From positions 1 through 40,940 of the forward strand of contig JBKHHG010000002.1 in the NCBI GenBank assembly GCA_046539225.1: 40,940 nucleotides of DNA, given 5' to 3'. The notes below the pieces were generated by a model, which saw only the letters and a program-made list of their open reading frames with translations, was not told the DNA's origin and ran no database searches. Numbering within the stretch: position 1 is the stretch's first letter; every line of letters starts with the position of its first letter. Positions 1-25,664 of this stretch are shown here, one piece after another. A program made the position numbers and the translations under genes. Origin of the DNA: Candidatus Nanohaloarchaea archaeon (GTDB lineage: Archaea > Nanohalarchaeota > Nanosalinia > Nanosalinales > Nanosalinaceae).

Positions 1-120
1 CTTGCGTATCTTGAAGACCTAAGGTCTTCTGTCATAGAAAACCTTTCTCAAGGTTTTCGTATGGATCGAGCGTAACCAATCGTTATGAGCGCAGCGCTCT
101 AACCCCTGAGCTACTTTCCC
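1..120 (-). tRNA. tRNA with CAT anticodon (probably Ile2, possibly elongator Met), intron-containing, truncated by the window edge; 5' exon 120..84, intron starts at 83
   Basis: Minus strand GGGAAAG-TA-GCTC-AGGGGTTA-GAGC-G-CTGCG-CT-CAT-A followed by non-tRNA sequence after position 37; T-arm and 3' acceptor strand lie outside the window. Confidence 0.85.
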
Positions 121-171
121 TTGTAGAAAGAGTTTCCGGGTCAATCTTTTTTATTCCCAACTCCTGTACCG

Positions 172-549
172 TTAGTTGACTGAGACTTTTCGGCTGTAGT
201 CGAGGCCTCCGACCCTGATAATCCCTTGCTCTCTTAATTCTTCAAAGGCCTCTGGCATAGGATCTGAGTCTGCTCTGTACATTTCATTGCAGCCGTAACA
301 GCCCACTACGTGCGGCTCGTCTTTTTCGTAGTCTTTAACGGTTTCATATACTGGCAGGACCGGCTCGCCGTCTAAAAGTTCCTGGCATTTGGCGTGGCCG
401 ACTGAAAGAACTTCGCACTGCTCGTTCAGGAAGTGGTTGATCGTTCTGACCTGTTCCTTTTCAGGCCTTTCTTTCACGTCATCGGTAATTCTTTCCAGTA
501 GCCTGACTTCTTCCCAGAACCGTTCTCCGTGTTCTTCATGCGGGTGCAT
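172..549 (-). CDS. Hypothetical acidic protein with Cys/His residues (C..H..C, CxxC), between two tRNAs
   Basis: ATG at 549 just 3' of tRNA-Val; the longer ORF-track start overlaps the tRNA; acidic composition typical of this genome. Confidence 0.7.
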   Translation of the reverse strand: MHPHEEHGERFWEEVRLLERITDDVKERPEKEQVRTINHFLNEQCEVLSVGHAKCQELLDGEPVLPVYETVKDYEKDEPHVVGCYGCNEMYRADSDPMPEAFEELREQGIIRVGGLDYSRKVSVN

Positions 550-554
550 GTGGA

Positions 555-707
555 TGGGTTCGCCCGGATTCGAACCGGGGATCTCCGCCAATTTGTGATT
601 GGCTTACCGATCTTCTGATCGGCGACCGCTAAAGGCGGTCATTGCGTATGGATCGAGCGTAACCAATCCTGTCAAGGCGGTGTCATAACCAACTAGACCA
701 CGAACCC
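555..707 (-). tRNA. tRNA-Val(GAC) with a 79-nt intron at 37/38
   Basis: GGGTTCG/CGAACCC acceptor stem, CCGCC-TT-GAC-A^T-GGCGG anticodon arm after splicing, CCCGG-TTCGAAT-CCGGG T-arm, discriminator A. Confidence 0.95.
591..669 (-). other. tRNA-Val intron with a relaxed bulge-helix-bulge splice motif
   Basis: Bulges CA^G and AT^T, central helix TTGA/ACAA (one mismatch), closing helix GATTGG/CCAATC, internal hairpins GACCGC/GCGGTC and CCGATC/GATCGG. Confidence 0.85.
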
Positions 708-781
708 TTTGAGGCCTATGTGTCTTGGTGTTCTGGTTAGGCTTAAATACCTCACCGAACAAGTACTGTTTGTTGGTTGAA

Positions 782-946
782 GTGGCTCCTGAATGTAGTG
801 AATGCGGCGAGGACTTGCACGTGAACTCTGTTGACAGGCCTAACGTTGACTGGGTTAAAGTCGTGTGCTCGAGCTGCGGTCACGTCGAGAATGTTTCGAT
901 GATCCGGCTGGATTCAGATGTCCGTGCCAGGAAAGACAACAATTAA
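782..946 (+). CDS. Small zinc-ribbon protein (CSECG...CSSCG)
   Basis: Two CxxCG knuckles; GTG start downstream of TTAAATA at ~743. Confidence 0.65.
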   Translation: MAPECSECGEDLHVNSVDRPNVDWVKVVCSSCGHVENVSMIRLDSDVRARKDNN

Positions 947-971
947 AATTTGTTCTTCAATACTCTTCTTT

Positions 972-1505
972 ATGGTCAACAAATGGCATGACTACGAGAC
1001 GGGGCCTGATGCTCCGGAAGTTATCAACGCTGTAATTGAAAATCCGACAGGCACGCAGAACAAGTACGAGTACGACAAGGACAAGGAATCAGTAGTTCTG
1101 GACAGAGTACTCTACGCTTCTATCAACTATCCTGGCGACTACGGGTTCATCCCACAGGCATACTACGAAGACGGCGACCCGATGGACATCCTCGTCCTGA
1201 CAACGCACTCAACGTTCCCAGGCTGCGTGATGGAGGTTCGACCGGTTGGAATCCTGTACATGGACGACGACGGGGAACAGGACGACAACATTATCGCAGT
1301 ACCGGAGGAAGACCCGCGCTGGAACAATGTTGAAGACCTGGACGATGTCAACGAGCACAGAAAGAAGGAGATCGCAGAGTTCTTCGCGACATACAAGAAC
1401 CTGGAGCCTAAGAAAGAAGTCGAGATCGAGGGCTGGGGCGGAAAAGAAGAAGCCCATGAAGCAATCGAGAAGTCCCAGAAGCTTTACGAAGAAAACTTTG
1501 AGTAA
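972..1505 (+). CDS. ppa: Inorganic pyrophosphatase (family I)
   Basis: Motifs NKYEYDK, LDRVLY, YPGDYGFIP, DGDPMD, FFATYK; start trimmed to MVNKWHD. Confidence 0.97.
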   Translation: MVNKWHDYETGPDAPEVINAVIENPTGTQNKYEYDKDKESVVLDRVLYASINYPGDYGFIPQAYYEDGDPMDILVLTTHSTFPGCVMEVRPVGILYMDDDGEQDDNIIAVPEEDPRWNNVEDLDDVNEHRKKEIAEFFATYKNLEPKKEVEIEGWGGKEEAHEAIEKSQKLYEENFE

Positions 1506-25451: not shown

Positions 25452-25460
25452 CGTGTATTT

Positions 25461-25532
25461 GCGGCGATGGTCCAGCGGCTAAGACTCTGGCCTTCCAAGC
25501 CAGCAACCCGGGTTCAAATCCCGGTCGCCGCA
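25461..25532 (+). tRNA. tRNA-Gly(TCC), intronless, CCA not encoded
   Basis: GCGGCGA/TCGCCGC acceptor, CTGGC-CT-TCC-AA-GCCAG, CCGGG-TTCAAAT-CCCGG. Confidence 0.97.
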
Positions 25533-25606
25533 AACAAGTTTTGCTCGGTTCCAGGGAGTTGAATCAGCAGAAAACTTGTTTTCAAGTTCAAATCCTGATA
25601 GCCGCA
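25532..25606 (+). repeat. Hairpin plus degenerate copy of the tRNA-Gly 3' end
   Basis: AAACAAGTTTT/AAAACTTGTTT inverted repeat (25532-25542/25571-25581), then GTTCAAATCCTGATAGCCGCA versus tRNA GTTCAAATCCCGGTCGCCGCA. Confidence 0.8.
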
Positions 25607-25664
25607 AAACTTCTGAAAGTTTTACCAGGATAATGTTTCCGGACAACAAGTAAACCCCATTGAA

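Follow-up and report, generated by a model that had tools for sequence, protein, structure and literature searches.

SINEs and other target-primed retroposons of eukaryotes are short and non-coding, with one fixed and one variable end, and lie between direct repeats of variable length. Prokaryotic MITEs carry terminal inverted repeats and a target duplication of fixed length. REP/REPIN and IS200/IS605-derived elements are palindromic sequences with imperfect hairpins, which cluster at gene ends; to our knowledge, the IS200/IS605 and REP-type families do not duplicate their targets. The nearest described case to the one reported here is the sharing of tRNA introns in Thermoproteales. Transposed tRNA introns were described there by Fujishima et al. 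(2010), as related in the available parts of PMC4033280 and of preprint 10.64898/2026.10.13.758758. In archaeal elements of the SSV and pNOB8 types, attL and attR lie at tRNA genes (PMC3293823, accessible sections). Direct repeats near archaeal introns have been reported in general terms in the available part of PMC11782384. Intron-rich nanohaloarchaeal genomes are noted, without explanation in the sections consulted, in PMC10266531, three supplements of which, searched on one strand, lack the loop motif described below.

The DNA analysed here, called the window, is a stretch of 40,940 nucleotides forming the whole of contig C2 of a nanohaloarchaeal genome (G000; 607 kb, 82% complete). Two neighbouring tRNA genes at its beginning were said in an initial annotation to carry introns with an identical 24-nt module, and this was borne out by sequence comparison: the minus-strand 24-mers at 81..58 and 668..645 are the same, and a naive calculation puts the chance of a repeated 24-mer anywhere in the genome at 0.003. 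As in Thermoproteales, where, in the sources cited above, introns are removed through bulge-helix-bulge motifs, related sequences are found in different tRNAs and at different positions, with the same mode of removal predicted. In contrast to the introns described there, the shared unit consists of a 28-nt head followed by a variable tail, which also occurs outside introns, on either strand and between target duplications. Whole introns of high identity common to several tRNA types are seen among T-loop copies of other lineages, whereas the two introns of the window have only the head in common.

Two tRNA Introns with a Common Head

The tRNA-Val(GAC) gene occupies 555..707 on the minus strand (Rfam tRNA match 707..555, 53.5 bits), with its anticodon at 673..671. 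It is interrupted at position 37/38 by a 79-nt intron (591..669, minus strand), in which the head is followed by two hairpins, a 3' arm and the splice end, and the segment 590-669 folds at z = -4.4. The head (642..669) is built from a stem pairing 669..664 with 655..650, the loop GTTACGCT at 663..656 and the hexamer ACGCAA at 647..642. Two variable tail hairpins follow at 607..641, as judged from the fold, and related hairpins recur elsewhere in the genome, both within introns and in flanks. The 3' arm (597..606) is complementary to the 5' arm of the head, which thus has two pairing options: its own 3' partner within the head stem, or 606..597, where eight consecutive pairs form the 8-bp outer helix, that is, the intron-side helix of the splice motif. 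The bulge-helix-bulge read from the sequence at the junctions has a central helix of three pairs plus one A.A mismatch, which is common to several other Val(GAC) introns. With an insert at 37/38 bounded by such a motif, and with EndA encoded in the same genome (PF01974 match in a 176-aa frame), this insert has the sequence features of an archaeal bulge-helix-bulge tRNA intron. Contigs of another sequencing run skip exactly these 79 bases between 590 and 670 and represent the intronless form in other organisms. The head is found in Val(GAC) introns of four other genomes; several Val(GAC) introns with unrelated interiors end in the same imperfect 3' sequence, and since this is so, the Val intron itself may be old, the head having been added later. 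The head in its commonest form, as at 642-669 of the window (minus strand), contains two short stretches resembling a tRNA D-arm, a likeness that may be due to chance.

The second gene, tRNA(CAT), starts at 120 on the minus strand and runs off the end of the contig, leaving in the window its 5' exon (84..120, anticodon 87..85, delimited from the sequence and orthologues) and 83 intron bases; the 3' half of the gene and the rest of the intron are absent from the assembly. The gene appears to be the elongator tRNA-Met, since separate initiator Met and Ile(UAU) genes are present in the genome. Its head copy (58..82, minus strand) has a C.C mismatch as outermost stem pair and contains a two-hairpin insert (10..57) flanked by two ATACG copies, as read from the fold and from a paralogue on contig C27. 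A repeat of the head end, ATACGCAA, occupies 1..9 at the contig break. The block ATACGCAA is indeed present at both 9..2 and 649..642, as was first noticed. The former is, however, a second copy of the head end and not a 3' splice site, because the same arrangement follows tRNA-Arg(TCT) on C27, where 73 of 84 columns are alike. The initial annotation also placed the module at the 5' end of each intron; the Val copy does start its intron, whereas the Met copy begins two bases in.

Misassembly does not account for the repeat, since public contigs span both copies of the 24-mer. One of them (run X1, possibly the source of the window DNA) covers 1-1000 with no differences and extends about 1,090 bases beyond position 1; in a second run, belonging to the same study, 1-708 lie in one contig with one difference. 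The contig break at position 1 was probably caused by the near-identical C27 paralogue. Elsewhere in this region, a small ORF without Pfam match lies between both tRNA genes (172-542, minus strand), and 918-1505 (plus strand) is a likely inorganic pyrophosphatase gene, as read from the sequence.

The Met intron has a history of its own. In 48 of 50 distinct complete elongator Met introns from relatives of the same order (one of the 50 being a mis-called non-Met gene; orthologue loci L020, L062-L088, L265-L301 and L331), an element antisense to the tRNA's own anticodon loop is followed by one base, then by CTGA (14) or ATGA (34), then by a C'-like box. The Met intron of these relatives is thus likely a C/D self-guide, and the fifth-base rule of C/D guides, which gives the target nucleotide, predicts that it would direct Cm34 on tRNA-Met. 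No report of such a self-guide was found in the literature search. The available part of PMC4033218 describes sR-tMet, which guides Cm34 in Haloferax, and the guide in the archaeal pre-tRNA-Trp intron; the relatives' Met intron resembles both in its antisense element and its D'-like and C'-like boxes. This likely guide is distinct from the shared module, which lacks the boxes. In L077 and L331, the head is inserted in front of an intact Met guide, and the window Met intron is likely in the same state, with the element lying within an older guide intron. As a separate observation, guide-like complements to the anticodon arm of the same tRNA are preserved in the tRNA-Trp intron of G000 (C1:4445-4714), which carries extra hairpin modules near its 3' end.

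Structure and Spread of the Head

The family unit is a 28-nt head, made of a 6-bp hairpin with loop GTTACGCT, two bases and ACGCAA, usually followed by a variable hairpin tail. Scanning yielded 276 head matches, of which 266 had the common spacing, corresponding to 256 distinct sites. The loop, ACG-AA and, in part, pairs 1-4 were imposed by the search patterns, so that some of their conservation is by construction. Pairs 5 and 6 were left free, and each of them pairs in 250 of the 256 sites, against 200 and 169 in shuffles (maxima 209 and 184), related sites not being independent in this count; pair 7 is at chance (60/256). Copies found by orthology rather than by pattern can have wholly different stems while keeping the loop and ACGCAA. 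Within the stems of the 256 sites, G.T pairs outnumber A.C pairs by 161 to 7, which indicates that the head-bearing strand is the structured one.

No Rfam family, ribozyme models included, matches the module in window 1-1000 or in 20 loci. A likeness to known ribozyme classes found no support there, nor by eye against their motifs. A pseudoknot between loop and tail was also considered and found no support, its commonest form having an A.C mismatch and compensating changes co-occurring in three sites only. The module was initially thought not to look like a standard C/D guide, and this holds: neither C (RUGAUGA) nor D (CUGA) boxes are present in the Val intron or in the visible Met intron, and the longest rRNA complements, 8 nt in the organism's own 16S and 9 nt in a relative's 23S (the organism's own 23S being absent from the assembly), are those obtained with shuffles. 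Over the genome, no match longer than 11 nt was found apart from the module's own copies.

A genome-wide search gave 11 head copies in G000, all 11 at tRNA genes. Four lie in introns, those of Val(GAC), Met(CAT), Thr(GGT) and Arg(TCG), and seven beside tRNA ends: five downstream of the 3' end, at Ser(CGA) (two copies), Arg(TCT), Phe and Ser(TGA), and two immediately upstream of the 5' end, in antisense orientation, at Ser(TGA) and Ser(GGA). Across the order, the head pattern occurs in 38 of 70 genomes (17 of the 28 of high quality, the other 11 being without it), and the reversed control gave 0. A one-genome-per-species collection contains at least 118 stretches with the head, and metagenomes at least 125. 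The 80 titles listed from the former are all archaeal, with 31 Woesearchaeota, 21 Methanosarcinales (as labelled in the titles), 17 nanohaloarchaeal and 11 other records by hand count. Viral contigs gave no exact match to two patterns.

ARAGORN predicts introns in 15 of the 26 tRNAs of G000, and an intron-containing tRNA-Ile with UAU anticodon lies at C36:1706-1833. Other hairpin modules occupy the same places at tRNA genes as the head copies. One of them, a second hairpin module, is seen in this genome at C21:8275-8300, C37:2996-3020 and C27:1161-1185 and in the introns of Lys(CTT), Leu(TAA) and Thr(CGT); it is often fused back to back with the head and also stands alone at gene ends.

Signs of Insertion and of Recent Gain

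Insertion was looked for as host sequence just before the head recurring after the tail, in the 212 copies with enough flank. Direct repeats of 14-70 bp of host DNA flank 50 of them, against 0 and 3 in controls, and 162 show no repeat by the same test. The mode is 17 bp, and at tRNA 3' ends the repeats run from the T-loop to the discriminator. The inserts between repeats measure about 40-160 bp, except for one tandem case of 26. Terminal inverted repeats are absent from the 50 elements, whose longest end match is 0-4 nt, as in controls. In 22 of the 50, one to six extra bases precede the head; decay of an idle duplicate could mimic such bases. What is duplicated varies: the 3' or the 5' end of a tRNA, an antisense T-arm, or the start or end of a protein gene. 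In the cases read, the arrangement leaves one intact gene. Among duplicates of protein genes (18 of the 24 rows listed, six tRNA-end rows being dropped), about seven synonymous and seven to nine non-synonymous differences within the repeats were counted by hand, a mixture as expected if one copy stays functional.

Copies are seen in both orientations and outside introns as well, including at stop and start codons. By rough, rule-based site classes, and with a tRNA HMM that misses Leu and Ser genes and fragments, 154 of the 256 sites fall in or near tRNA genes, compared with 102 of 2,000 random sites, for which the regex part only was applied. Insertion recurs at the 3' end of the gene that precedes polC (DP2), where different modules are found in L052, L053, L092, L116 and at G000 C21:8300. 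Duplicated tRNA ends also surround short hairpin fillers without head, at 25460-25640 of the window and, in other contigs of the same genome, after Leu(TAA) on C4, after Tyr on C13 and after Arg(GCG) on C11. In G074 (L518-L547, titled Woesearchaeota), a 170-bp repeat with terminal inverted repeats carries several nested inserts; some of its copies contain a 130-bp head-bearing module and others lack it, duplication being slight or absent. A diversity-generating (DGR) variable region was considered for this multi-copy context and dropped, the sequence being non-coding and part of a repeat with inverted ends.

Val(GAC) is intronless and the Met intron headless in G001, G003 and G004, the three genomes of the same genus in which the locus is present, and the strict head pattern was not found in any of the four congeners. 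In G003 and G004, most orthologues of the intron-bearing tRNAs of G000 are compact (30 loci compared in each, of 32 and 39 tRNA hits). Long tRNA hits make up 44 of 119 in five element-rich genomes and 38 of 221 in seven without the strict pattern; these are hand counts in groups chosen by the analyst, with kin not independent and long introns missed, and G024 (12 of 30 hits long) breaks the trend. The headless orthologues and the empty Val site thus support the part of the initial proposal which spoke of recent mobility. The other part, an intron family, does not stand as such: because the module also occurs outside introns, on either strand and between direct repeats, it is not simply a mobile intron family.

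T-loop intron copies are absent from the 75 sites of the window's order, as against 37 of 181 elsewhere, which is in keeping with the single, short EndA of G000 (176 aa), its type being judged from its size. In the available part of PMC5829648, efficient cleavage of non-canonical introns is ascribed to two other EndA types alone. A 3' arm with at least seven pairs is present in 33 of 60 intron copies, compared with 38 of 169 others. The places in which copies have been retained agree with selection by the splicing enzyme.

Possible Routes of Mobility

The shared head repeat is, with high confidence, real, widespread and mobile in evolutionary terms. How it moves is less clear-cut. We put at about even odds the reading that the shared block is the head of a protein-free, non-autonomous mobile element whose copying into new sites starts from a free 3' end of DNA. 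Such copying would give a fixed head, occasional extra bases, a variable tail and duplication, no inverted repeats and both orientations. A nick or a stalled strand beside a stem-loop, above all in tRNA genes, would prime synthesis, which would begin with the head, in some cases preceded by a few additional bases, and end at a variable point within the tail. The new strand would then rejoin the target slightly upstream, so that the target is duplicated. The template might be RNA or single-stranded DNA; RNA fits poorly, because the structured strand would be the newly made one and not the template. Against the whole reading count the 162 of 212 copies without a repeat by the test used, the slight or absent duplication in G074, the imperfect 3' end common to unrelated Val(GAC) introns and the lack of a clear antisense intron copy. 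Selection would keep copies where the duplicate restores a tRNA or a gene end or, alternatively, where the insert sits in a loop and the 5' arm of the head pairs with a 3' arm into a bulge-helix-bulge removed by EndA. In the window, the 5' portion of the Val intron is formed by one copy, and another would have entered the older Met guide intron.

A route entirely through RNA is an unlikely competitor, in which bulge-helix-bulge mini-introns would be reverse-spliced into other tRNAs and fixed in DNA, the flanking copies being truncated by-products. It agrees with the intron copies, which, as far as seen, are all sense and carry the head at their 5' end (by eye, none is clearly antisense, as an RNA-level route would explain too), with the common head, 3' arm and splice end of T-loop copies in different tRNAs, with the excess of long 3' arms in introns, and with the Thermoproteales intron families common to several tRNAs (PMC4033280, available part). 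Reverse splicing, however, gives neither 14-70 bp duplications nor antisense copies, and both occur, as do copies at stop and start codons. Moreover, reverse transcriptase genes (PF00078) are rare, present in 7 of 70 genomes and not found in the incomplete G000, and do not track the element (4/38 genomes with it, 3/32 without). Slightly less probable is an element of IS200/IS605 or REP type that moves as single-stranded DNA, its head being nicked by an HUH nuclease and joined to a target end, with repair closing the other. The fixed end, the lack of inverted repeats, the G.T-containing hairpins on the head strand and the insertion into hairpin loops all speak for it, and the element is like REP/REPIN in its imperfect hairpins, missing inverted ends and clustering at gene ends. 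It differs from REP/IS605 by its target duplications (50/212 copies), its strong tRNA bias and the want of a Y1/RAYT partner: Y1 transposase was found in 4 of 70 genomes, neither in G000 nor in ORFs beside copies. No conserved target tetranucleotide lies upstream of the head. Shrunken integrase-driven islands, with the repeats as attL/attR and the head as a conserved arm beside attP, seem less probable again. Inserts bounded by direct repeats of one end of a tRNA, 3' or 5', do resemble the SSV and pNOB8 sites, the repeats from T-loop to discriminator (mode 17 bp) being like archaeal att sites in the available part of PMC3293823, and tyrosine recombinases are present in 43 of the 70 genomes of the order. 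The inserts measure, however, only about 40-160 bp, and the head abuts many tRNAs, D-loops, opposite-strand 5' ends and protein-gene ends, each with its own repeat; since the targets are so many and unrelated, one attP cannot match them all. No integrase was detected in G000 or in the element-rich G007, G011, G017 and G067, all incomplete, and the viral contigs without exact match also weigh against such islands.

It is improbable that the module is a structured RNA of use to the host (as guide, ribozyme, terminator or stabiliser) which spread and was retained for that use. The initial annotation had offered a conserved functional circular RNA as its second option, which the conserved, covarying hairpin favours to a limited extent. 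A host function would agree with the retention of the loop and ACGCAA despite whole-stem replacement in copies found by tRNA orthology, the G.T bias on the transcribed strand of introns, and the many copies that follow stop codons or tRNA 3' ends. Against such a function stand the 32 of 70 genomes (11 of 28 of high quality) in which the head was not found, the existence of antisense copies, and the negative Rfam, box and rRNA-complement searches. Very improbable as a full account is a single, local gene conversion event between the introns of the two adjacent tRNA genes, with no wider meaning. The heads are letter-identical, which local copying between the two neighbours may explain, and the partner bases of the Met copy fit the Val stem and not its own; nine more copies in the genome, among 256 sites overall, refute it as the whole explanation and dispose of the objection that the block might occur only in these two neighbours. 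Coming back to copying from a free 3' end, no candidate mobilising enzyme emerged among those sought. GIY-YIG was found in 13 of 70 genomes and Cas1 in 3 of 70, neither of them in G000; a casposon is not indicated, terminal inverted repeats being absent too. As far as compared, none of reverse transcriptase, Y1, GIY-YIG, Cas1 and tyrosine integrase tracks the element. The 132 neighbouring ORFs (longest within 350 bases downstream; 136 listed for 170 heads, four duplicates dropped) belong to housekeeping families or match nothing.

Comparison with Known Systems and Implications

The element works like a non-autonomous retroposon or mini-transposon, and lacks the tested features that would place it among MITEs, REP/IS605 elements, att-bounded islands, casposons or C/D guides. 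Its likeness to SINEs lies in the fixed head, the variable end and duplication, the extra junction bases and the absence of inverted repeats. It differs from them in showing neither poly(A) nor a tRNA-derived promoter, in having the structured strand as product strand and, in the PF00078 search of 70 genomes, in having no partner reverse transcriptase that tracks it. As with MITEs, the element is short, non-autonomous, hairpin-rich and multi-copy, and in G074 the module rides inside the 170-bp repeat with inverted ends; unlike MITEs, the element itself has no terminal inverted repeats, and its duplication varies over 14-70 bp.

The literature search found no description of this element, subscription journals being thinly covered. 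As a broader and more tentative proposal, it would represent a new kind of prokaryotic mobile DNA: 40-160 bp long, protein-free and SINE-like, target-primed by a core host enzyme, present in distant archaea and a source of tRNA introns. A direct role as intron source is suggested because the head supplies half of the outer helix of the splice motif. If no element-encoded enzyme exists, the finding points to a route by which DNA moves in reduced archaeal genomes that is missing from the transposon catalogues known to us. One and the same 28-nt head forms part of introns and also stands free between target duplications, while close relatives have empty sites at orthologous positions, and it offers a marker for population tracking as well as a substrate for biochemistry. 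The element may thus help to explain how archaeal tRNA introns arise and, if the proposal is true, the intron-rich state of this nanohaloarchaeal genome would record a recent burst.
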